Below are positions 282 to 60,431 of a stretch of DNA of 64,000 nt, in pieces. A program made the translations under genes and the position numbers. The notes under the pieces were generated by a model. That model did no database searches, was not told where the DNA came from, and saw nothing but the letters and a program-made list of their open reading frames with translations. How positions within the stretch are numbered: position 1 is the stretch's first letter; each line of letters opens with the position of its first letter. This DNA comes from Octopus vulgaris (Eukaryota). Location of the stretch: assembly GCA_951406725.2 (NCBI GenBank), contig OX597834.1, positions 19,778,001-19,842,000 on the forward strand, in the 5' to 3' direction.

Positions 282-691
282 ACTCTTTACTCTTTTACTT
301 GTTTCAGTCACTTGACTGTAGCCATGCTGGAGCACCGCCTTTAGTCGAGCAAATCGACCCCAGGACTTATTCTTTATAAGCTTAGTATTTATTCCATCGG
401 TCTCTATTGCCAAACCGCTAAGTGACGGGGACGTAAACACACCCGCATCGGTTGTCAAGTGATGTTGGGTGGACAAACACAGACACACAAACATATACAT
501 ACACACACACACACATATATACACTTACGACAGGCTTCTTTCAGTTTTTGTCTACCAAATCCACTCACAAGGCTTTGGTCGGCCCAAGACTATAGTAGAA
601 GACACTTGCCCAAGGTGCCACGCAGTGGGACTGAACCCGGAACCGTGTGGTTGGTAAGCAAGCTACTTACCACACAGCCACTCCTGCGCCT
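282..691 (-). mobile_element. tRNA-derived SINE, family A, near full length; nested in an older family-C SINE (~247-800)
   Basis: Minus-strand head GGCGCAGGAGTGGCTGTGTGGTAAG with A box and B box GGTTCAGTCC, internal (TG)n, TAAAAGAG tail; TGAAAT on both sides; many copies in the window. Confidence 0.85.
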
Positions 692-1117
692 GAAATGAAG
701 TGTTTTGCTCAAGAACACAATGCATTGCTTGGCCTAGGGATTGAAACCATGATCTTACAATCAGATGTCCAACACCCTAACCACTAAGCCATGTGCCTCC
801 ACTTTCGAATGAAATTACTGTTCGTATATTATTAAGTTTACAAGAAACTAAACTATTGTTTAATTATCCCTTTATGACTCTTCCATCCATACTGATTAGT
901 TTTCATGTTATTTAATTGTTATTAATTGCTGGATAACAATTAAACTTTATGTATTAATTAATGGCTTAAGTTGTGATAGAAGAGAGAAATTTAACTTTGA
1001 ATACTTTAAAACAGACAGATGGCTGGTTGTAACATAGTCATATAAATGGTTTTAAATGAGTTGATGTCAAAAACATTCAGAAATAAATTTATTAATGTCA
1101 TGGCTTTGCTGTTTTAT

Positions 1118-1260
1118 TTAGCAGCTCTAATATTGGAAGTTCCTGATATAGATTTCCCTCGAATAAATAATACTAGATTCTGGCTTCTTCTTCCTTCCTT
1201 AACTTGGCTGCAAACCTCAGCTACAGTGGAAGGAGATATGGAACTGGATAAACTGTTTAT
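1118..1260 (+). pseudogene. cox1: NUMT: decayed fragment of mitochondrial cytochrome c oxidase subunit I
   Basis: Invertebrate mitochondrial code gives [36 protein letters not shown] then, after a frameshift, GTG*TVY; matches the COI motif [25 protein letters not shown]...VESGxGTGWTVY. Confidence 0.88.
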
Positions 1261-1310
1261 TTGTACTTATCAAGAAATTTAATGATGATATATATATATA
1301 TATATATATA

Positions 1311-1682
1311 GCTGACCAGAAAAGAATTAATGCATTCGACCTTTGGTGTTGGAGAAGATTTTTACGGATTCCATGGACAGCAAAGCTCACCAATGGAGAA
1401 GTTCTTAAGCAGATTAGGTCGAAAATGTCGCTAGAAGCTAGGATCACCAAGCATAGATTGGCATATTTCGGTCATATTATGTGGAGAAAATCCCTGGAGA
1501 AGGACATCATGCTCGGAATGGTCAGTAGCAAGAGAGGAAGAGGCCGACCAAGAACCTGCTGGCTTGACAGCATCAAGAGTGATACTGGAATGGATATAGC
1601 CAATCTGAAGGAAGCGGCTCAGGATAGAACTGACTGGAGGACACTTATCCAACGAGTAACCGAGAGTCGACTTCGACTGAGC
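1311..1682 (+). mobile_element. RTE-clade LINE, 5'-truncated ORF2 C-terminus
   Basis: RINAFDLWCWRRFLRIPWTAK...YFGHIMWRKSLEKDIMLGMVSSKRGRGRPRTCWLDSIK...AQDRTDWR; between (TA)n tracts. Confidence 0.9.
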
Positions 1683-2091
1683 ATATATATATATATATAT
1701 CATCATTAAATTGAACTCTGTAAACTTGAACTCCGTAAAGACAGATGAATAAGCATTTCACCTGGTATGCTAATGTTTCTGCCAGCTTGCTTCCTTACAA
1801 TAACAATAATATTATACATATCTCTATGTGATATGTGAATGAGAATGCATGGTCTAGTGGTTAGGGTGTTGCCCCCATGATTGTGAGATCATGGTTTCAA
1901 TACTTTGATCGGGTGGTGCATTGGATTTTTGAGCAAAACACTTCATCTCATGTAGTTCCATGAACACTTCAATACCTGATGTGTGGTACACTGTGCACCT
2001 GTTCAGGTAATGTCAACTTGATGGAGAGAGTTAGCTAATGTACAATGTACAGCACATACATTTGATCATTAGAAACAAATCATTTGTAAGG

Positions 2092-2303
2092 CTGTGAGCT
2101 GGCAGAAATGTTAGCACACCAGGTGAAATGTCTAGCGGTATTTCATTTATCTTTATGTTCTGAGTTCAAATTCCGCTGAGGTCGACTTCACCTTTCATCC
2201 TTTCAGGGTCGATAAATTAGGTACCAGTTGTGAACTGGGGTCTATCTAATCGATTGGCCCCCTCCCAAAAAATGTCAGGCTTTGTGCCTAGAGTAGAAAA
2301 GAA
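2092..2303 (+). mobile_element. SINE family B
   Basis: GAGCTGGCAGAAATGTTAGCA head, GAGTTCAAATTCC B box, CCTTTCATCCTTTCAGGGTCGATAAATT central domain. Confidence 0.8.
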
Positions 2304-2899
2304 ACTGATCATTTGTGCCGGTCATTAGGCAAAAGCTGAACTCTCATACAGCACCTTCGACTGTCCATCATGTGAGTGTACATGTGTTTGCATTTGACCT
2401 CCATTACACGATAAGCGCAGTTAGTTTGTTTATGTCCCTATTTCACAAATAAAGAGACTAACAGAAATTGCACCAGACAAAAATGATAAGAACAGAGGTC
2501 AACCAGTTTGATGAAATACTTCAAGGTGTTGCTCCAGCATGGCTGCTATCTAATATCTGAAACGAATAGAAAACCAAAAAATAAAATAGTCAAGAATATA
2601 AATGTTTTGTCATGGAGTAGAGGTGGTGGTGGTGTTGTTAATGCAGTATATTTTATTAAATAAATTACATATTTGTTGTATGTATTCATATCTAACATTA
2701 GAAATTAAATACAAAACATAAGAGATAAAATTGCATGGGGCGGGGATAGCATTTTGCATTTTGTACTCAAGGGTAAAATATAATATATTGCTGAGTTTTA
2801 GGTACAAAGCATAGGTGTATGTGTGTGTGGATTGTGATATATTTGATATTACATTGTACTGAAGTAAATATAAGTTTAATAAAAGAATAAATGTGTGTG

Positions 2900-2939
<40 letters not shown>

Positions 2940-3077
2940 CATATGTATGTATACAAAATACATATGTATATTTACATACATACATGCACATATATACAGG
3001 CATACATTCATTAACATATAGATGCACAGACATACATATATTGATATATATATATATCCATACATATGTATACCTAC

Positions 3078-3483
<406 letters not shown>

Positions 3484-3484
<1 letters not shown>

Positions 3485-4855
3485 ACGGGAAGCTTTATGA
3501 AAATAAACAAAAGACGAAGGCAGGTGGAAAACAAACGAACAATTGTATTAGTATGGCGCTCAGGAAATATAAATAAAACAAGTCTTTAACGTTTCGAGCC
3601 TACGCTCTTCAACAGAAAGATATGCGTGCAGTAGCTAACGAATCAACATGGCGATCTGATTTCGCCAGAGGTCAAAGATCAAACATGAGACGCGAGAGCG
3701 AAATAAGGGGAGATAATAGGGTTGATAAAAGGGTTGAGGGACCAGCTAAAAGTGCGTGGAGGGGTCTGGATGTGTGTATGTATAGGGTTGGTGTATGTAT
3801 TAGTATGTATAGGGTGTGTGTGTGTGTGTGTGTGTGTGTATGAGAGAGTATTAGTGCGTAAGATTGGTCTGGACGTGCGTATGTATGGGGTTGGTGTATG
3901 TATTAGTATGTATTAGTATGTATTAGTACGTATTGGTATGTATAGGGTGTGTGTGTGTGTGTGTGAGAGTATAAGTGCGTATGCGGGGTCTGGACGTGTG
4001 TATGTATAGGGTTGGTGTAAGTATTAGTATGTACTAGTATGTATTAGTACGTATTAGTAGGTATTAGTTGGTGTGTGTATTAGTATGGCACATCATATGT
4101 GATGTGATGTGTAAAGTCATGTGGTGTAGTGAGGAGAAGAGGGGAGGGGGAGGAGGGGGAGAGAAGAGGGGGAGAGAAGGGGAGGGGAAGAAGAGGGGGA
4201 GGAGAAGGGGGAGAGGAGAGGATGGGGAGAAGGAAGGGGATGAGGGGGATGAAGGAGGAAAGAGGGAGAGGGGAGAGAGAAGGGGAGAGAGGGAGTGAGG
4301 GAGCAGAGGGAAGGGGAAGAGGGAGGGAGAAAGAGGGAAGAAGGGAAGGGAGTAGGGGTGAAAGGATGAAGGACTGAAGAAGTAGGGGTCGGGGGAGAAA
4401 GGATAGGTGAGGAGGGGGTGAGGTTAGATGAGGAGGGGGAGAGTTGAGACCAAATGGCGTATAAGAGCGAAGAGAGAAGATTAATTCCTGTTCACGGCGC
4501 AAATCCGGATGGCCTCTGTGTAAGGACAAACCGAACACAGATAGGTGTTGCAAGGATGATGAGCGGAAATGGCGTGAGACCGGTGTGTCGTTCGCAAGGT
4601 GGATGTCACGAAGGTGTTCCGCGAACCGGTCAGCCAAGCGGCGTCCCGTTTGTCCGATGTACAAGGAATTGCAGAGAGAGCAAGAGATGCAATAGATAAT
4701 ATTGCTGGAGGTGCAGGTGAAGGATGGATGATGGGATAGGGTCGATGGTGGGTGCTAGTGAGGCGGGTGGTGTTGGAGATGTAGGGCAAGTGCGGCAACG
4801 TGGGCGGGAGCAGGGGAACGAGCCGGGTTGGGAGGTAGGGTCAGGGAAGGAGCTA
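3484..4855 (-). mobile_element. Penelope-like element, 3' part: Cys-rich linker, GIY-YIG endonuclease and 3' repeat region
   Basis: With frameshifts reads [61 protein letters not shown]...REQELIFSLRSYTPFGLN; (TA)n on both sides. Confidence 0.92.
3583..3620 (-). ncRNA. Minimal type-I hammerhead-ribozyme-like motif (U6 variant)
   Basis: TCTTT-CTGTTGA-A-GAGC gtag GCTC-GAAA-CG-T-T-AAAGA: stem I TCTTT/AAAGA, stem II GAGC/GCTC, palindromic AACGTT. Confidence 0.7.
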
Positions 4856-4891
4856 TGTATATATATGTATATATATATATGTATATATATG

Positions 4892-4940
<49 letters not shown>

Positions 4941-4941
4941 G

Positions 4942-4975
<34 letters not shown>

Positions 4976-5080
4976 TGTATATATATATATACATACACAT
5001 GTATATATATATATATACATGTGTATATATATATATACATACACATGTATATATATATGCATATATATAAATATATATAT

Positions 5081-5130
<50 letters not shown>

Positions 5131-5422
5131 TCATATATATATCTATACACACACACATTAATATGATGTGAGGGTGAGGAGAGGCGTTTGGTATTGATTG
5201 TTGTAGAAAAAAAAAACAAAATAAAAAAGCAACTAAAATAATGAAAAAAATGAAAATAGAAAATGTCAATTATTCTGCAGACATATGCTGATATATCTTC
5301 AGCCTGTCAGGAATTTGGTTCTTATACTATGCCTTACCATTATTGCCATTCTATGACACATATACATAGAAATACACACATAAATACACATCTGAATACA
5401 CAGAGATACCGACACACATATA

Positions 5423-5460
<38 letters not shown>

Positions 5461-5755
5461 TACACATACACACACTTAAACACACACATAGATGTATTTG
5501 CACAGATGCACGCATGTGAAGTTAGTGTGTGATTTAAAGATTTATTCTTCAGGTTTTGGAGATTTGAACTGGAACCAGATTTCAAAAGATTCTGTTGCAA
5601 AAACCATTAGAATATGTGGGCACAGGAATTTGTTTAACAGCAGCCTTTGGAATTGAAGAGAAGAACTTCATTTATGCTTTGGGTGTTTGGATGTCAAGAT
5701 GTTGGATGCTACAATGATGAACAGAGATACATACATACATACATACATACATACA

Positions 5756-5791
<36 letters not shown>

Positions 5792-6219
5792 TACATATAT
5801 ATATCTGTGCACACATACACACATATTTATAAACACACACACACATATATATGTATGTGCATACACACACACATATTTATATACATACATATACATATAT
5901 ATATATTCAGACACACACACGCACACACATGGACACACACATACACCTTTGTATGTTTTTGTACTCCCATACGCACATGCACATATGCATGTATTCTGGT
6001 ATGTGTTTTCCAGCCCATAGGCTGTGGCCATGCTGGGGTATATATATATATATATATACATACATACACATATGTATGTATTTATTGATATATCTGTATC
6101 TATCTGTCTATTCTATATACATACATACATACATATATATATGTGGATTTTCTGAGTACCTCAATTCTTCTAATATATATATATATATATATCTTCATCA
6201 TCATCAACACTGTTTAATG

Positions 6220-6250
<31 letters not shown>

Positions 6251-7593
6251 ATATATATATATATATACACATTGTATGTGTGTAGAGAGAGGGAAGGAGA
6301 GAGAGGAGATGTATGGTTGAGAGGCAGAGATATGAAGAGTTTAATATAAGTGTTTTGTGGCTGTGACATCTTTATTCCCTCAATCCATTGAAATTTAGTC
6401 ATCTTCATGAAATCTCCAAACCCCTCCTGCCTTGCCCTCTTCCCTCGTTCTTCTGCACACTGAACAACTGATAGGGTCAGGGAGGTTGCACCCCACCACG
6501 CCTTTCAGTGCTCACCCCACCTGCCAAACTGCCCAGCCAGATTGCTTACAATAAATCATCTGTTGCATGTGGAGGGTGGAGAGAGGGAGGGAGTGTCTTA
6601 CCTCTTCTAGCTTACTTCTTTCTCATTCATTCATTTATTCACTACTACTACTACTAATACTACTACTACTACTACCGTTGCTGCTACCACCATTACTGAT
6701 GCTGCGGCTACTTCACCTAGTTCTTTTACTTCTTTTTCTTCTTTTTTGTCTTCTTCCTCCTTTCCTCTTCCTCTCCTCTTCCTCCTCATTTTCTTCCTCC
6801 TCTTCCTCTTATCCCTCCTCCTCTTCCTCCTTCTTCTTCAGACCAATCTTAGACAGGTTTTAGCAACAAATCTTCCTAATTTTAATTCAAGATGAGAAGG
6901 TTTCAGGAGAAGGGGGAAATTAGCCAATTACATAGACCCCCCCAGTACTTGACTGGTACCTTGTTTTACCAACCCCTAAAGGATGAAAGGAAAAGTTTAC
7001 CCAGGAGGAAAGAAGTGTGGTAAGGTGGTTGCTTCCTGATGAAATTCCCTCTCTTCGTGCTTGTTTTCGATCAGCCCTAATTCTGGAAAATCATCACCGC
7101 TCTCCCTTACTGTTTCATTAACCACCTGCTCTTCCCACGTGGATTGTTTGGTAAAAAGCAAAAAAAAAAATACCAGACTTTAAAGAAAGATACTAGAGCC
7201 AATTCTTTCGACTAAAAAGCCCTTCAAAGCAGTGCTCCAGCATGGCCACAGCTGAATGTCAAAAATGACCGAAAGGTAAAAGATAAAAGACATCTATGTC
7301 ATCATGGTCATCTTAAGGGCCACTTGCCCCGTGGTGTTATGGATGGAATTTATTGTTTGTCAACCTTCATCTGATTCCAAGCGAGATAATCTTTTTCTGT
7401 GGTCAGATATATTTTTCACAGAATATTGGAAAGTGGATGAAAATGGCACTGCTTTGTATGACAGTGATATCATTTACAATAATCACATGATCAAGACAAA
7501 AAAGACACAAACACATACACTTGCACATACATACACATATATATAAATGTATATACATATTGATACATATGTAAGTATGTATACATACATATA

Positions 7594-7630
<37 letters not shown>

Positions 7631-7631
<1 letters not shown>

Positions 7632-7822
7632 GTCGCCATGATAGATTGTTAGCCACTACACACATTTTTTCTCTCCTTGTTTTTGCTGTGTCCCTTTCTG
7701 TAGAGGAGCGTAGGCTCGAAACATAAAAGACTTTTTCTATACCTGAGCATTATACTAATACATCTGTTTGTTTTGTACACCACCTATCTTTGTCTTTTGT
7801 TTTTTTTCGTAAACCCTCCCTA
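7631..7822 (+). mobile_element. Penelope-derived 3' tail fragment with hammerhead-like motif (7694-7729)
   Basis: Homologous to 3484-3660; CTTT-CTGTAGA-G-GAGCgtagGCTC-GAAACATA-AAAG; (TA)n flanks. Confidence 0.8.
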
Positions 7823-7842
7823 TGTATATATATACATATATA

Positions 7843-8043
7843 ATAGGCTGGCGTATAATTATTGCGACATTTTTCAATAAATTTTATTCATCAAAAACAA
7901 TAACAACATGTAACAAAAACAACTCTAAATGATTATTCTGGAGCATCTTCACCATCTACTTCAATTACTGCTTGGTGTTTTGTTAAAATTTTGTTGAATA
8001 AAATTTATTAAAAAATAGCTGCAATAATTGTGCACCAACATAT
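7843..8043. mobile_element. Mariner-type MITE
   Basis: Imperfect TIRs ATAGGCTGGCGTATAATTATTGCG / TGCAATAATTGTGCACCAACATAT resembling Hsmar1/MADE1-type ends; TA flanks. Confidence 0.7.
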
Positions 8044-8416
8044 ATATAGATATATGTATGTATATATATATATAGAACTTAATTGGAAAAGGATGCGTGG
8101 CGTTCGATCATATGATAATATAAATAATATATAAATATATGCATATATACATACATATATGTACATACTACATACATATGCATATATGGGTACACGACAT
8201 AAAAAAAACGTTGAACACAATGAGAAGCGAAAACATAGAAACAAAAACATAGAAAGCGAATTTACTTATCACTGCTTAGCACTCCACTTCCATAGATTAT
8301 TCTATCAGCCTCTTTTGCCAAACTGCTAAGTTACAGGGATGTAAACACACCAACACCAGTTGTCAAGAAGTGGTGGGGGACAATCACAAACACAGAGACA
8401 CACACATATATATATA

Positions 8417-9008
8417 TGGTGGTTGTCTACTCCTTATGCAGAGCTTGACCATTCCTGTACCTACACTTTAGAACTATCATGGCATCTGATGTGGCTTTTT
8501 AATCCAATCAATATTCTGAAAAGTCACCCACATAGATTGCACATCTGATTTGGACCAGCAAGAGCTGCAGATAAGTACTCATCTTTGTGGATCTTAAAAT
8601 GTCTTTTGAGGCCTCCATTAGATTTGCAAACCTTCTGGCATACACTGCATTCAAGGCTGTGCACAGACATATAGGTAGAATAGTTGGTGGAGGTTTGTTT
8701 TCCATGGGTTCACAAATGAGATTTGAGCCCTGCAAAAGAAAGGCATGCGCAAAAAGGTCATTGTGATTCACCTTCTCAATCATAACATTCTTCCTTAAAT
8801 CTCTCGAGTCTTGCATGTGTTATCCTGGCCTCTTCAAGTGCGTTCACTCCACTCCACACTTTTGTTCACCATCCAGTTCAATCCGAAGCAAGGGTTTCTA
8901 TATCCTCTGGATCCAGTCCAAGTGACTTCATAGTAGTCCTAAAACCGTTCTTAAACCTTTTTTTAGGTTTACACCAATAGCGTTTCCTCTCTGCAAGCTC
9001 ACCATAAT
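8417..9008 (-). mobile_element. RTE-clade LINE 3' end with three C2H2 zinc fingers, inserted inside a family-A SINE (~8300-9200)
   Basis: One frame: YGELAERKR..KPKKRFKN..ETLASD*TGW...CLSFAGLKSHL*TH...CSVCQKVCKSNGGLKRHFKIH...CNLCG*LFRILIGLKSHIRCH..SKV*; short 3' UTR and CCA-type tail. Confidence 0.85.
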
Positions 9009-9344
9009 ATATATATATAGATATATAACAGACAGGTTTCTTTCGGTGTCTGATTACCAAATCTACTTAGAAGCCTTTGATTAGCCCAAGATTATAGTGG
9101 AAGGAAGACACTTGTTAAGGGTACCACACAGTGGGACTGAACCCAGACCCCCAGAACCATGTAGTTGGGAAGTGAGCTGTTTACTACATAGCCACACCTA
9201 TGTGTGTGTGGTGGGGGATTACACAATGATGTATCTTGCCATTATTCTGTATTTCATATTCCATTGATAAACAACAACTAGAACACATACACATTTCCAT
9301 GTATGTGTATACACACATATATATATATACACACACATACATAT

Positions 9345-9388
<44 letters not shown>

Positions 9389-9588
9389 TTATACATGCCT
9401 TAACATATTTACATAACCAACACACCTGTACTCTTTAATGTCTGACTACATATATTTTAATACATACAACGAATTTACTATTTCTATGTTTTAGTTAGCT
9501 AATTAGATTTCAATCTGAGATATTTAATACAAACATGTGTATGTATATAAACATACATACATACATTTATTATATGTGCATGTATATA

Positions 9589-9624
<36 letters not shown>

Positions 9625-10032
9625 TTTATTTATTTATGTATGTATACATGCATCAATCTTGTTTTGAAGTGAAGTATAATCTTTTATTTTATTTTATTTT
9701 ATAGTTTTTTTTTTATATTTGTTCCTTTAAATTATTTCTGACTATAACGAGACACATCATGTCTCATAAATGTTCTTTTATCCAGAAATTCTACTTAAAA
9801 ATAACAGTAGCCATTTATTAAATAAATGAGATTCTTCTTCATTTTTTTGTACTTTTAGCGCCTGTGAACTGTCATAAGAGTCTACTTTATGAGTTACTGT
9901 GGTTGAAAATTAACTGGTTCTTTTTTCACAGTTAATGGGGAATTGTCCAGACATTATTTCTAAGATCCACTGTATAAAATCAGGATTGTTTAACTTCATT
10001 TTGTCACCACATAAAAAGTGTAATAAATGCAC

Positions 10033-10069
<37 letters not shown>

Positions 10070-10459
10070 GAGAGAGAAATAGATAGCGATATATATATAT
10101 ATATATACACGTACACACGCATAAATACATACAAACATATGCATAAACACACACACATACACCCATACACACACGTACATTTAGTTTAATTTATAGATTT
10201 CTGTAGAATAAACCAGATGCTCTACTGTTATATTTAACTTGTATACACTTCTCTTGTGATATCTAGTCTCCTTGATCTTTGAATATATATATGTGTGTGT
10301 GTGTGCGCGCATGTGTGTGTATGAATATATATATGTATATATATATATATATATATGAATATTTACATAAATATATATACATAAGCAGACACACATATAT
10401 GCTTATATTCAGATATATACATGCACATATATGTGTATATATAATATATAAATGTGCAC

Positions 10460-10500
<41 letters not shown>

Positions 10501-10510
10501 TATATATATT

Positions 10511-10542
<32 letters not shown>

Positions 10543-10695
10543 GAGCATGTATATATCTGAATATATGCACATATATGTGTATTTATAAATGTGTGTATGT
10601 ATATATATTTATGTATATAGATGTATGTATGTATACATAAATATATATAAGCACACACATATATATGCATATATTCAGATATATATATGCACATA

Positions 10696-10768
<73 letters not shown>

Positions 10769-11174
10769 AGACACACGTGTGTGTGCTTGTGTGGTGCGTG
10801 CTTTGTAGTTGAGCTGGACATGAACCTAAAGCTTTCAAATCACTGTTGCTAGCTAGTTATTACTGACCCTGCTCTGTGTTCATCAATCCTTTTGACAGCT
10901 ATTGTCTATTTCGTCTGCCTGGATTTATGTGTGCATATATGTGTGTGTGTGTGTGCTTCCATATATGTGCATCAAAACAGGTGTGTGCATATGTATGTCT
11001 CTTTTGTTTTTAATTATTTGAATTCTTCCTGTAACGAAGGAGCTGATTTCTAACAGAGGTACTAGGCTCCATCGTTGGAACGTAGATAACAGAATCAGTG
11101 TCACATGTCAAACTCGAGAAAAAGTTTTACTGTTCTACCTATGCATATAAGCATGTGAGTATGTATGTATGTAT

Positions 11175-11545
11175 GTAGTGAGAATTTACAAAAAACAAAA
11201 GATGACGACGGGTGTGTAAAGCTCTATCTGCTATGATTTCATCTCAATTGAAGGAGAGGGGCTCTCTCCATCCGGGTTGTGGATCTGTGGAATAAGCTGC
11301 CAGACGAGATAGTGAAGATGCCGACGACTGCTTGGTTCAAAGTCTCCCTTGACCAGAAATGGCCTGAACTCTTTGCATGAACACCACCCTGTACATAACT
11401 CCATGTCCCCCTACATGGCCTTGCTTTTTGCTTTTTGAGCCAAAAAATTAACTTAACTTAACTTAACAAACAGATGTATTAGTTTAATGCTCGGAAAGTG
11501 AGAAAGTCTTTTACATTTCGAGCCTACGCTCTTCGACAGAAAGGT
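11175..11545 (-). mobile_element. Penelope-derived tail with hammerhead-like motif (11508-11543), split by a LINE insertion
   Basis: Halves 11175-11220 and 11466-11545 rejoin to the sequence seen at 29650-29800; core CTGTCGA-A-GAGCgtagGCTC-GAAATGTA. Confidence 0.78.
11219..11466 (+). mobile_element. CR1/L2-group LINE 3' end
   Basis: RRGALSIRVVDLWNKLPDEIVKMPTTAWFKVSLDQKW fits the RVVxxWNxLPxxVV...FKxxLD ORF2 terminus; (AACTT)n tail. Confidence 0.8.
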
Positions 11546-12375
11546 TGAATTCGTCCTTACATCATATGTTGTGAAAAAAGCCTCAACCAAACTGAGAGTT
11601 AGAATTTTTCTCTCTGCCAATTCATGCTTTATGATTCCGCTTTCCTCTCCTCGTAATTTTTCCTCTAAGCGTTTCATATCTCTTTAAAAAAATAAACACC
11701 ATAATTTTGTTTTTTTTAAATCTAGGGAAAAATAATCATACGTGGTCAAACATTAGAATCACAATGTGCAGATGAAAAATTATCTTCGTTAAATAATTAG
11801 CCAGAACATGATTACAGAAACAGAAAGATCCGAGTATGAAATGGCTATTGGTACATCCAGTTAACCGAGATAAAATAATAGGAAATACATACAAAAAGAA
11901 TAAATAAAAACAAAAATACAAGACAAAAGAAAAAATAAGAAAACAACATGATTTTGGGGAGGTCTTTATCAATAATGTAATTCTATTTAAAATGTGCTGA
12001 TTAAAAGTAATAAAAAATGTTTGCTATTCTGTTTTCTCTGTAGGTAATCATATAATCGTATTAGCAAATTATCTATATTTATAGCTTCAAACATATCTAA
12101 TTAACAGTGTGTAACAGCATGTGCAACAGAATATTTTTGCATATATATGTGTGTATGTATGTATGTGTATGCATGTATGTATGCATATATATACGTATAC
12201 ATGTGCATTTCTATGAGTATGCAAGCATGTATATGTATATATGTATATATATGTCTGTGTATATATCTATGTATAGATATATATATATGTATATGTATGT
12301 ATATATATATGTATATGTATATTTATATATATATATACATATATATAGATATGCATATATATATAAATATATATT

Positions 12376-29649: not shown

Positions 29650-29654
<5 letters not shown>

Positions 29655-29800
29655 CAAAGTTTACGAAAAAATCAAAAGACGAAGACAGGTGGTGTACAAA
29701 ACAAACAGATGTATTAGTATAACACTCAGGAAAAGAAAAAGTCTTTTACGTTTCGAGCCTACGCTCTTCTACAGAAAGGTACACAGAAAAAACAAGGAGG
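29650..29800 (-). mobile_element. Penelope-derived tail with hammerhead-like motif (29743-29778)
   Basis: CTTT-CTGTAGA-A-GAGCgtagGCTC-GAAACGTA-AAAG; abuts (TA)n. Confidence 0.8.
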
Positions 29801-30098
29801 GATAGATGATATTTTGCTTAGGCATTGTGAGACCAATAACCCAATGTAGAACTCAATATATGTATCTTTCTGAATGAAGTGTTGTGTAAGTAGTACAGAG
29901 TATTAAAAAGAAAGAGAGATGGCAAACGAATGAATGGTTATTCCTTTGTCCTCTCTCTTTCTTATAATAAGACTCCAGCAATGTAACTACACACATGCTG
30001 TTGGTGATTTCTTTTCCTTCTTTGGACTTTTCCCTTTCTCCTTTCTGACAAAAAGCTAAATATGGACTAAATCCATACCTAGCATAAACACTATTTTA

Positions 30099-41689: not shown

Positions 41690-43590
41690 TGCATAAAGTA
41701 TACATGCAGTCCTCACAAACTTTCTGTGATTAAAGCAACCTGCAGCATAATTCGAGTTGGCTAGGCCTGACCTTGGGTATATGCTGTGGTTTGTTGTGAT
41801 GCGCTTATTTTCACTGTATTGAAAGTGTTTTATGTAGGAGGGGTGCAGTACCCAGTAGTACTATTTTCTGTGTTATATATACTTGTTAGTCCTGGTGTTT
41901 TTGTTATGTATTAGTCTGAATGTTTTTTGATCATACCTAATGTGCCTACTATGATAGGAATTTTTTCAGTTTTTAGGCTCCACATTTGAGTTACCTATAT
42001 TTCCAGTTTTGATTTACCTATACTCAAAGTTTCTCCATTTCTTTTAGAGAAGCATTGTCATCTGTTGGTATTGATACATTGATTAGAATGCTATTTTTTT
42101 TTTTTGACGATCTCTCACAACTACATCCAGCCTATTGGACTTAATTTCTCTATCTGCATGTACTAGCATATCCCAGAGTATGGTTGCTTTCTCCTTTTCT
42201 GTAACCTTTTCTGGCATGTGCCTATACCATCTTTTGTCGCAATTTATGTTCCTAACACTAGCTCAATGATAACGATGTTATTTTACTAAATTCTTTCTTA
42301 TATTTATGCCACCCGCCCGTCTGGCACCTGTGCGGGTGGCACGTAAAAAGCACCCACTACACTCACGGAGTGGTTGGCGTTAGGAAGGGCATCCAGCCGT
42401 AGAAACACTGCCAGATCAGACTGGTTGCTTTCTCCTGTTCTGCGACCTTTTCAGGCATGTGCCTATACCATCTTTTTTCTGTTGTTATTCCATAGTGTTG
42501 GCATAGCTTCCAGTGAATGTAGCTCCCAATTCTGTCTCGTCTGTGAATATATTCCTTCTTAGACAGGACTGGGCAGCCAGCGACAATATGATTTATTGTT
42601 TCTTCTACATAACCACATATTCTGAAATTGCTTGTATTTCTTTTCATTATGTGTTTTTGGTGATTTCTGGTGGGAAGGCTTTGATCTTGTGCTACAATTA
42701 AAAATCCTTCAGTCTCTGCTTTGAGTTCTGCTTTCTCTATTTTTTTGTGTTTATCTTAACTCAATATTTGCCATGAAGGGGCTTATCTTGCCATCGTTTC
42801 ATCATGATCTTTTGCTGTTCCAGTTTTAGTTTTGAATTTCAGTTGCTTTACAGCTTTTGTTGTTTCTTCTTTTTTCATAGTTGTTAGGTACTAAGACTCA
42901 TTTTTTGTATTTGTCAGCTTCCTTAGAGACTGAAGACAGTTTCTTGTTTTGTTCTTGTTTTAAGGCTATTTGTATTAGTTTTCCTTGATTTTTAAATAGG
43001 TATTTCAGTTGTCCTATGGTGGTTATTTTGTAATAGTTTTCTAGCTGTATAAGGCCTCTACCACCTTTGCTATGATATATATATAATCTTTTTATATCAG
43101 ACTAGCAGTGACCGACCAGGCTATCAGATGTTGTTACACATCGCTAGTCACAATGCGCTTCGCATTGTTTTAGCCTTGAAATGATGCCACCCCGCTGGCT
43201 AAGCGAGCAGGCCAACAGAAGAAAGAGTGAGAGAAAGTTGTGGTGAAAGAGTACAGCAGGGATCACCACCACCCCCTGCCGGAGCCTCGTGGAGCTTTAG
43301 GTGTTTTCGCTCAATAAACACTCACAACGCCCGGTCTGGGAATCGAAACCGCGATCCTTCGACCGCGAGTCCGCTGCCCTAACCACTAGGCCATTGCGCC
43401 TCCACATGTTATATATATATAACCTTTTTATATCAGATTTTGGATGGTACATCCGAAATCCTGTCTTTATACATCTTGTTTTTCTGTCTATTTCGATTAG
43501 TTCATTTAGAGTCCAGTTAAGAATATTGTAGCTGTAACTTATAACTGTGATGGTTAGAGTGTTGATACATATTATCTTGTTTTTATTATT
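41690..43590 (-). mobile_element. R4/Dong-clade non-LTR retrotransposon 3' half (post-RT region, CCHC knuckle, restriction-like endonuclease), decayed with nested insertions
   Basis: HPKSDIKRLYI, GGRGLIQLE, RICGYVEETINHIVAGCPVLSKKEYIHRRDRIG, TILWD..DREIKSNRLDVVV..ILINVSIP, IPIIVGTLGMI. Confidence 0.85.
43106..43405 (-). mobile_element. SINE family D inserted in the Dong-like element
   Basis: Flanked by the direct repeat ATATATAA(T/C)CTTTTTATATCAGA. Confidence 0.88.
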
Positions 43591-45640: not shown

Positions 45641-46413
45641 TATCATGTCATCCCATAAGTTCTGTCTGATTTTACCTTTTTTAAAATTAAATGAAACTTG
45701 ATAGTATTTTAGAATGTTTAATAGAATTAAAGATTATTTTTATGCCTTTGTGTACATTTAAACTAATTAAATATTATTTTACAGAATAATAGAATTAAAA
45801 TTTCTTTGATTAAAATCCTTTCTAACATGAAAGTATCCAAAGAGCATTTGAGGCACATAAGGCTTTATGAGTACAAAAAATGAAACTCTGCAGCTGAAGT
45901 GACTCAAAACATACACTCAGTTTATGGGAAAGAATGCTTGAATGAAAGAACTTGCAGAAGATGGTTTGCAAAATTCAGAAGTGGAGATTTCAGCCTTAAA
46001 GATGAAGATCGAACAGGACATCCAGTTGAGTTTGATGATAAGCTCTTTGAGGCATTACTTGAAGAAAATCCTGCCTCATCAGTTGAAGAATTGGCAACAA
46101 AGCTTAGTTCAAACCATACAACTGTTCATCATCATTTTCAACAACTTGGAAAGGTTCCTAAACTTGGAAAATGGGTACCTCATGAATTGTCTGAAAGCAA
46201 CTGCAAATCTCAAGTTGACATCTGCTCTTCTATCCATTCTCATGTACTCATTTCACCTTTTTTGGATTGACTTGTGACTGGTGACGAAAAATGGATCTTC
46301 TATCGAAATATTAAACGTCGTAAACAGTGGCTTGGTAAAAAGGAAAAAGCTCAACCACAACCGAGATGGGAACTTCATGGAAAAATGTTTCCTCTCTCTA
46401 TCTGGTGGGATTG
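45641..46413 (+). pseudogene. Mariner transposon 5' part: transposase pseudogene (ATG 45827) truncated before the second catalytic Asp
   Basis: One frame with two stops: CRRWFAKFRSGDFSLKDEDRTGHP, GKWVPHELSE, LVTGDEKWIFY, SIWWD; TIR-like GTCATCCCATAAGTTCTGTC upstream. Confidence 0.92.
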
Positions 46414-53389: not shown

Positions 53390-53643
53390 CACTAATGTAG
53401 CTAGAGTGTGTGCTGCCTGGGGTGACCCTTCCATTTGCCACCTCTGGAGCTCACAAAAACACACATTACCTACAGCAATAGCCTATATATATACATATAT
53501 ATAAAAAGGGGAAGTTTACGAAAATAAACAAAAGACGAAGGCAGGTGGTGTACAAACAAACAGATATATTAGTATAGCGCTCAGGAATAGAAAAAGTCTT
53601 TTATGTTTCAAGCCTACGCTCTTCTACAGAAAGATATCTCTTT

Positions 53644-53686
<43 letters not shown>

Positions 53687-53851
53687 ATACAGTAACGCAT
53701 ATATATATATATATATATACATAATATATATATATAAACACATATTGCCTACAGCAATAGTATACAACAAGATGAAAAGTGCTGCCCCTTTAAAAATTCC
53801 GCCCCTGGATGGACCGCCCCAACTACACACCCCACCCTAGCTACGCTAGTG
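53390..53851. mobile_element. hAT-like MITE with 8-bp TSD and a nested Penelope tail
   Basis: TIRs CACTAATGTAGCTAGAGTG / CACCCTAGCTACGCTAGTG; TSD CTTGCACA at 53382-53389 and 53852-53859. Confidence 0.85.
53505..53636 (-). mobile_element. Penelope-derived tail with hammerhead-like motif (53597-53634)
   Basis: TCTTT-CTGTAGA-A-GAGCgtagGCTT-GAAACATA-AAAGA. Confidence 0.78.
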
Positions 53852-58789: not shown

Positions 58790-60431
58790 TACTTACTACA
58801 TTACTATAATAATAATAGTAGTAGTAATAATAAAAATAAAAATAATAGAAGCAAAAATAGAAGAGTGCCATTATTATCGAGTGAACGATATTTCGACATA
58901 TCACGCGTCTTCCACAGGTTCAATAAATTAACTTGTCAATCTGTTGAAATATCATTCACTTGATAACAATAGCACTCTTACATTTTTGCTTCTATATCTT
59001 CTGGAGGAGTTACCTCACTAATAATAATAATAATTACGCAAAATACTTTCTTTGTAATCTCAAGATTTAAAACAAACATAATTTTCGTATGTTTTTTTAG
59101 GCATTCACTAGTACAACACTAAGTACAAAACCAAATATATGGCACCCTAGGCATAACACCAACATGAACTTCCAACTTGTTGTCTCTTGAGGTCTCTGGG
59201 TGAGACTTGGAGCCAGCTTGTGCAAATGTAAAGCAAAAGTCAAACATAGAATGATAATAATATTAATAATAGTGATGATGATGATGATGATGATACAGTT
59301 GCAGCAGCAGCAGCAGTGGGTTATCATGCTGCAGTGCTAAGCAGTGGTTCTCATGTCTTCTGGTCTTAATTGACCGGAAGTGTTAATATGTTCACAGCAG
59401 ATTTTGTCTTGGTGTAAAAGATGGGCTACAACAAATATTCTGCTCAATACCACATATTTGCTTGTCAGTTGCTTGACTTTAACCAGTTGAGATCCTTCTT
59501 AAGAAAACAGTTGGCAATAATTTGAGGGATGTTTAGTTGTTATTTCTAGCTTATGAACGACGTAAGTTGGATGAAGGTTTGACCAGAGCTGGCTGATGGT
59601 GAAAGACAGACAGACAGAAAAAATTCTGGTCTGACAACATCAAGGACTGGACAGGTCACAACCATATTAGATAAGGAGTACAACGAACACTAGCTTTGGA
59701 CAGAAAGAAAGCAGGAAATGAAAAACGTGATGGTCATGGTTGGAACACATTTTATCAAAGTTCTATGTAATCAGGGCAGTCCTGATTGAACTGACCCCTT
59801 TTTAAAGGTGTCAAAAATAATATTAACCAAAGACAATGAGGAATTTTCTATGTGGTTACTTGACCTGCAAGAAATATCAGCTAAATCTCCTTCATATCAC
59901 ACTAAAACATCAGCCTTTAAAAAAGGGGAGAACACGTTAGGGAATATAATCATAGTTATACAGTCTACAAGAAAAAAATTGGTAGTTTTGTCATGGCTGG
60001 AATGCTTTTGGTTATTGGTTTAATTGATCAGAGACAAACAGGGGCCAAACTACAACAATAACAATTTGCCTGTTTTGTACAGTGGATAGTTTCCCCCCTC
60101 ACTATCCAATGTTTTAATCAATCCTGTATCATATTACATTCAATTAAGTGAAAACAAAACAGTAATAAAAAAAAATAAATAAATAGTTTATCTTGATTTT
60201 TTCCATATAAAACAATGATTCTGTCCACATGGTCGAAAGCTTATGGCTTATCTGATTGTTACCATTTCAAATACAAAATGTGTCTATTTTTAAATACACA
60301 AGATGCATTCCAAAAGTTTTGAAACTATTTTACGAGTACCCTAGATTTGTGTTATTTTAGATTATAGCCAATATAATCTAATATGCTGACTTTCCAGCAT
60401 TTTTTAATTCCAGATTGAAGGAGATGCCTGT

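Follow-up and report, generated by a model that had tools for sequence, protein, structure and literature searches.

The hammerheads of Penelope-like elements (PLEs) have been given the consensus CUGANGAH, with an A at core position 6 in every legible row of the published alignment, and these minimal hammerheads require a dimer and cleave slowly even when A6 is present (PMC4209133, Fig. S3). The hammerheads of Lunse, Weinberg and Breaker (2017), as described by the title of that paper and by a review, are linked to PLEs, have a very short stem III and are cleaved as dimers. The hammerhead of a PLE in Anolis depends on protein for cutting; in vitro, uncut RNA serves for insertion, and mutants of the hammerhead leave this insertion unaffected (PMC11167929). 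A natural exception to A6 is the A6C hammerhead of phage Bcep176, which cleaves at <0.1 per min and is expected to have lost one or two hydrogen bonds (PMC3088659). The A6C change depresses cleavage in Mg2+ and not in Mn2+, and in another hammerhead it lowered the Mg2+ rate from 0.3 to 3.55e-6 per min at 300 uM (PMC7151607). Full pairwise mutagenesis of one hammerhead gave low activity for all mutants of the CUGA region, save for a C-G swap (PMC9901934).

The octopus motif analyzed here occurs five times in the window, which is the whole 64-kb stretch of DNA under study, and has every tested feature of a PLE minimal hammerhead except A6, so that we class it as a variant and not as a canonical member. 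The nearest listed row is the minimal hammerhead (min-HHR) of Acropora digitifera Neptune, with which it shares the type I order, a short stem I, an extra nucleotide after A9, the pair G10.1-C11.1, a 4-bp stem II ending in GCUC, an ACGU palindrome that replaces stem III, and a location downstream of a GIY-YIG endonuclease (PMC4209133). The octopus motif differs from this row by U6, by its stem I (CUUU/AAAG vs GCU/AGC), by its loop (GUAG vs UAAC), and by H17 (A/U vs C). It shares with the Bcep176 hammerhead a natural pyrimidine at core position 6; however, the phage base is C, in a single sequence whose cleavage has been measured as slow and favoured by Mn2+ (PMC3088659, PMC7151607), whereas the octopus base is U, in a high-copy retroelement family that lacks stem III and is known from sequence alone. 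U6 amounts to a single-base variation on a known system, and A6C provides a natural precedent (PMC3088659).

The Anolis Poseidon hammerhead PAc offers a further comparison, as it is likewise uncut in insertions. The distance from the start of stem II to the end of the stub is 115 nt in octopus copy 2, and reverse transcription starts at 111-118 nt from the corresponding point in PAc, an agreement that may be a coincidence. PAc differs in belonging to the Poseidon clade and in having had its protein-assisted cleavage shown, and no U6 is mentioned for it in the text covered; moreover, its ORF starts at stem II, whereas the octopus stubs have no ATG 3' of the motif (PMC11167929).

Motif copies in the window

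An earlier note on this DNA had reported five hammerhead copies with T at position 6 and a free position 7, and all five were recovered at the coordinates and on the strands that it gave:

3583..3620, minus strand: copy 1 motif, predicted minimal type I hammerhead; C3 at 3615, U6 at 3612, N7 = U, H17 = U at 3588
3583..3620, minus strand: stems of copy 1; UCUUU/AAAGA (stem I) and GAGC-GUAG-GCUC (stem II), with an ACGU palindrome replacing stem III
7631..7822, plus strand: copy 2, a 190-bp stub between TA runs; motif at 7694-7729, U6 at 7701, H17 at 7725
11465..11544, minus strand: copy 3, a short stub of a sister subfamily; motif at 11508-11543, N7 = C, 3' flank differs
29653..29802, minus strand: copy 4, a stub with a terminal TA run; motif at 29743-29778
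53504..53637, minus strand: copy 5, a stub between TA runs; motif at 53597-53634

A 31-nt pattern in which position 6 was left free matched exactly these five sites in the window; over 100 shuffles the mean number of matches was 0.00, and 0/100 reached five. Position 6 is T in all five copies, and position 7 reads T, A, C, A, and A in copies 1-5, as expected of a free N7. The minimal type I architecture proposed for the copies is also supported: C3, U4, G5, N7, G8, and A9, together with G12, A13, A14, A15.1, U16.1, and H17, are found in 5/5 copies, and G10.1-C11.1 in four, the first pair of stem II being G-U in copy 5. The canonical A6 of the hammerhead core is replaced by U in every copy, and every copy spans an uncut cleavage site. 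The extra purine before stem II, which had also been noted, is present in 5/5 copies and is an ordinary trait of PLE minimal hammerheads (PMC4209133).

Other parts of the initial description required revision. The string GAAA-CG-T-H, ascribed to all five copies, occurs in copies 1 and 4; the CG of the palindrome is CA in copies 2 and 5 and TG in copy 3, as CpG decay would give. Positions 15.2-16.2, which have no loop III, thus retain ACGU in 2/5 copies, and the remainder carry CpG transitions. The claim that the copies fold as hammerheads is carried by descriptor and comparison rather than by folding energy, as only stem II is stable in 5/5 monomers and the monomer folding z-scores range from -1.74 to +0.72, none of them convincing. 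The poor folding energy of monomers is expected because the motif has no stem III of its own.

When one core change was tolerated, the descriptor identified six motifs in the window, all with U6. The sixth, which the earlier note does not list, is a single copy with unrelated stems:

58882..58922, minus strand: sixth U6 motif; stem I UGAAC/GUUCA, core CUGUGGA
58882..58922, minus strand: the same motif, continued; extra A, longer stem II, AUAU palindrome, H17 = C

The same descriptor gave 0-2 matches in each shuffle, and a U6-type match arose in 2/20 shuffles, for which reason the sixth motif is treated as a lead. It lies centrally in a decayed, 71%-identical inverted repeat (58845-58995, minus strand). 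The arrangement recalls the truncated copy in inverted orientation that PLE insertions typically carry.

The element around copy 1 and the structure of the stubs

The window is AT-rich animal DNA that is dense in microsatellites. Copy 1 forms the 3' end of a 1.37-kb truncated Penelope-like unit located between two TA runs, with the following parts:

3485..3582, minus strand: shared 3' segment after the copy 1 motif; (TA)n run 103 nt past H17
3621..4442, minus strand: predicted 3' untranslated part; pyrimidine-rich tract, ~120-nt and 10-nt tandem units
4443..4845, minus strand: frameshifted C-terminal endonuclease remnant; C-x4-C-x2-C linker, then GIY-YIG with internal cysteines

The region 3621..4442 is assigned to the copy 1 element because it has no internal TA run. 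It includes a high-copy segment at 3630-3809, and a 14-mer at 4076-4089 is found again 3' of the copy 1 motif at 3544-3557. The 5' end of the endonuclease remnant adjoins a (TA)n run near 4856. The remnant matches the GIY-YIG domain (PF01541) with an E-value of 2.5e-4, just under the Pfam cut-off, and is 41-53% identical to the C-terminal endonucleases of RT-EN proteins; in its full-length homologues P0006 and P0020, the RT precedes the EN. The only named endonuclease homologue is an Octopus bimaculoides model with 59% identity over 114 residues, out-of-frame sequence included, and a search for a solved structure of the endonuclease returned none.

The endonuclease and the copy 1 motif are on one strand, with the motif ~830 nt 3' of the endonuclease, and lie within one TA-flanked unit, of which only the 3' copy of the motif was seen; the link to Penelope suggested in the earlier note is supported. 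A CX2-5CxxC linker before GIY-YIG marks the Neptune and Nematis clades and has been proposed to bias insertion toward microsatellites (PMC8557442). By its linker and GIY-YIG domain, the octopus element is likely a Neptune-type EN+ PLE, although the linker is common to Neptune and Nematis. No RT or full-length copy of the element was found in the 64-kb window.

Copies 2-5 are short stubs. The copies share ~100 nt 3' of the motif, and a (TA)n run follows 94-103 nt after H17 in 4/5. Copy 5 is flanked outside its TA runs by a 25-bp direct repeat (92%; 53457-53481 and 53736-53760), and the TA runs may therefore belong to the insertion; a target-site duplication was seen for this copy only, one of the five. 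Copy 3 stops ~48 nt earlier than the other copies and is followed by short TTAAG repeats (11440-11465, minus strand), and an optional PLE tail is possibly absent from it. A 10-mer containing CTAAT occurs after the motif in 5/5 copies, where a pyrimidine tract follows it, and is repeated in tandem within the 3' region of copy 1 (3544-3557 and 3796-4089, minus strand). We take this 10-mer to resemble a branch point.

Position 6 in the family and its relatives

Contigs from four public runs were placed on copy 1 (2,134-22,743 pieces per run) and copy 2 (349-11,737 pieces per run), in agreement with the high copy number claimed for the family. The copy 1 alignment is uninformative for position 6, which falls close to its edge. 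The percentages given below are depth-weighted contig shares, which differ from copy counts, and derive from pieces with 80% or more similarity to copy 2, a threshold that would exclude any A6 sister family of greater divergence. U6 is fixed in the family, being present in nearly all aligned copies. The earlier note had proposed a check for A6 in the family consensus, and the majority base of the copy 2 contigs was U6 in the four runs. Only T>C was seen at position 6 (2.1, 0.6, 0.9, and 0.1% of depth in the four runs), and T>A did not reach 1% of depth there in any of the four runs, for which every T>A place counted was listed.

Position 7 is non-A in 31-53% of depth (U 16-31%, C 11-13%, and G 1.5-10%), and H17 is A or U (U in 4.5-14% of depth) with no row for G. 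The loop II G varies in 3-11% of depth, compared with 0.1-1.6% for the stem base with which it forms a CpG, and the bulge positions of stem I vary by 1-12% per base. At the extra position before stem II, A accounts for 98-99.7% of depth, G12 changes in 1.2-2.9%, and core sites other than position 6, N7, and H17 show no more than 3% change. In the palindrome, 16.2 is G in 77-90% of depth (A in 10-23%) and 15.2 is C in 92-97%, and ACGU is found in most of the depth. In run X5, for which all rows of at least 1% were listed, a minor base of at least 2.5% was found at 0/26 constrained and 5/8 free sites (Fisher p 2e-4), with site classes that were set after viewing the table; without CpG sites the counts are 0/23 and 2/5 (p 0.026). 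The outer G of stem I (G>T, 3.6% in X5) was omitted from the classes and, if counted, makes the constrained figure 1/28. The difference between constrained sites and the 3' flank in the same run was not significant (0/26 vs 10/71, p 0.058).

Depth is greatest over the motif itself, and loose ends occur on either side of it, which implies that sister subfamilies share the motif but have other flanks. Within the limits of pieces at least 80% alike, subfamilies appear to have diverged at free positions while U6 and the remaining core held. The distribution of variable and constant sites matches the hammerhead's own pattern of tolerance, which would have been retained since U6 arose.

Relatives of the element were retrieved from metagenomes by endonuclease alignment, and the best 80 of 413 confirmed loci (L001-L080) were analyzed. 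Their motif matches the Acropora Neptune row (PMC4209133, Fig. S3), and since a protein-only search returned the nearest motif, endonuclease and motif likely form one lineage. The descriptor identified 41 motifs in 37 of these best 80 of 413 loci, 39 with A6 and two with G6. A covariance model gave 71 matches in 64 of the same loci, with A at position 6 in 66, G in two, T in one, and a gap in two, although the model was built largely from the metagenome loci and leans to their sequence. The lone T6 match is a decayed copy.

The motif of the A6 relatives aligns with the octopus motif without gaps. Two of the three stem I pairs differ on both sides, and one stem II pair changes from G-U to A-U, a one-sided but consistent change. 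The stem covariation that the earlier note had suggested looking for is accordingly seen against the A6 relatives, as two events in two lineages and in rows picked by a descriptor that demands pairing, whereas within the octopus family the stems show only constancy. On this comparison, U6 is likely derived from an A6 hammerhead. A second register, with a U inserted after G5 and the next A read as A6, was considered and rejected because it would break C3-G8; it is also ruled out by the variable site, which falls exactly on position 7, and by the gap-free alignment.

A different core change, U4C (CCGACGA), occurs in 19 of the 69 model matches with a base at position 4 (best 80 of 413 loci). The subfamily includes L038:409-452, L041:1522-1565, L050:748-791, L052, L053, L065, L075, and others, often with a changed 3' flank, and as a subfamily trait in relatives it indicates that fixed core changes are not unique to the octopus genome. 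The exact pattern of the octopus family had 0 matches in viral and metagenome contigs, and the endonuclease alignment found none in viral contigs. A general U6 pattern matched 120 loci in viral contigs, one of which has weak 3+3 stems and was judged a chance match.

The Rfam hammerhead models matched neither copy 2 nor the A6 relative L035; because the A6 relative was missed too, this blank is uninformative on U6. In the Rfam scan of the whole window, the rows listed (150 of 498) were all miRNA matches driven by microsatellites. A natural A6U hammerhead was not found in the literature covered, and PMC11014351 and PMC13725137 have no passage on A6U. The A6U hammerhead is provisionally regarded as an unreported variant.

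A proposed slowed ribozyme and the alternatives

Our preferred explanation, held with a probability of roughly 0.55, is that the motif is a slowed, protein- or dimer-assisted ribozyme under selection in an element that is copied from uncut RNA. It falls between the two options of the earlier note, an active non-canonical ribozyme and a dead fold with another role. We infer every step from sequence to cutting. The transcript would form stems I and II, and two motifs, located in two pLTRs or on two RNAs, would pair via ACGU and complete stem III. The loss of A6 would lower the rate in Mg2+, and cleavage after GAAACGUH likely persists, slowly and probably only with a second copy or an element protein. 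On uncut RNA, reverse transcription would start ~100 nt 3' of the cut site, and because of this proposed use of uncut RNA, slow cutting would cost the element little or even help it. Most insertions would be short 5'-truncated stubs at (TA)n, and selection on source elements would keep the fold and some activity. The erosion of the ACGU palindrome, with A at 16.2 in the share of depth given above, counts against this explanation. Among the rows listed, contigs on copies 1 and 2 show neither a joint nor an accumulation of ends at the cut site; the data of runs X10 and X11, presumed to be RNA, are contigs, which cannot show RNA ends.

Given the low activity of CUGA-region mutants and the collapse of the Mg2+ rate with A6C, U6 could be effectively dead. 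It is possible, though unlikely, that U6 killed catalysis and that the fold is kept for the binding of the element's protein or of host factors, or persists only because the family has been too short-lived for its loss. Such a history would fit with the mutagenesis (PMC9901934), with the unchanged in vitro insertion of Anolis hammerhead mutants and the RNA-seq reads from Anolis, none of which ended at the cut site (PMC11167929), with the Naiad PLEs, which thrive without canonical hammerheads (PMC8557442), and with the uncut site retained in every copy in the window. However, a dead fold need not track the catalytic rules so closely as this family does: the subfamilies have diverged at N7 (three alternatives), H17, the loop, the bulge, and the flanks, whereas the unpaired catalytic G8, G12, A13, and A14 change in no more than 3% of depth and H17 is without G.

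It is improbable that the change to U6 has been compensated, whether by dimer geometry, neighbouring bases, Mn2+, or protein, such that the motif cleaves with roughly the efficiency of its A6 relatives. Comparison with those relatives shows no compensating change in the core, and in the mutagenesis no double mutant except the 3-8 swap rescued the CUGA region (PMC9901934). In favour of compensation, U6 has neither reverted nor drifted across subfamilies, and A6C barely affects Mn2+ cleavage under some conditions (PMC7151607); the motif at 58882-58922, with its unrelated stems, also has U6 but is one decayed copy.

Least probable is that U6 is favoured because U6-A7-G8 supplies the UAG of a 3' splice acceptor for a pLTR intron, the splicing of which would remove half the core: the AG follows 46-49 AG-free nt with 17/22 pyrimidines in copies 2 and 4 (7654-7703, plus strand; 29769-29820, minus strand), and the intron of D. 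virilis Penelope ends at helix I (PMC4209133), but a non-A N7 abolishes the AG in 31-53% of depth while U6 stays, copy 5 has the AG without a pyrimidine tract, no clear branch point was seen upstream, and PLE hammerheads in general have U-rich sequence ahead of the motif (consensus of Fig. S3, PMC4209133).

If the slowed-ribozyme explanation is extended, U6 would be a working and selected third identity of position 6, would have arisen more than once in octopus Penelope (in the main family and at 58882-58922) and would act as a brake; we regard this extension as rather doubtful. Under such a brake, cutting would be delayed until Mn2+, a partner copy, or the element protein is available, which would let full-length RNA survive long enough for copying, so that the family would constitute a natural experiment on whether ribozyme activity in PLEs is tuned instead of being maximised. 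Hammerheads in Penelope elements may act as a processing signal or may be passengers or parasites. This family, successful with a core change that is both fixed and probably damaging, forms with its alignable A6 relatives a pair in which the need for fast cutting can be tested. Searches with CUGANGA skip this family because such descriptors treat A6 as fixed, and yet it is present five times in 64 kb.

The window also contains remnants of other transposons. A C-terminal frame at 1203-1709 (plus strand) has no Pfam match and is presumably LINE-like. There is a weak zf-RVT match at 42363-42755 (minus strand), and a Mos1-type HTH domain (PF17906) is located at 45884-46270 (plus strand).
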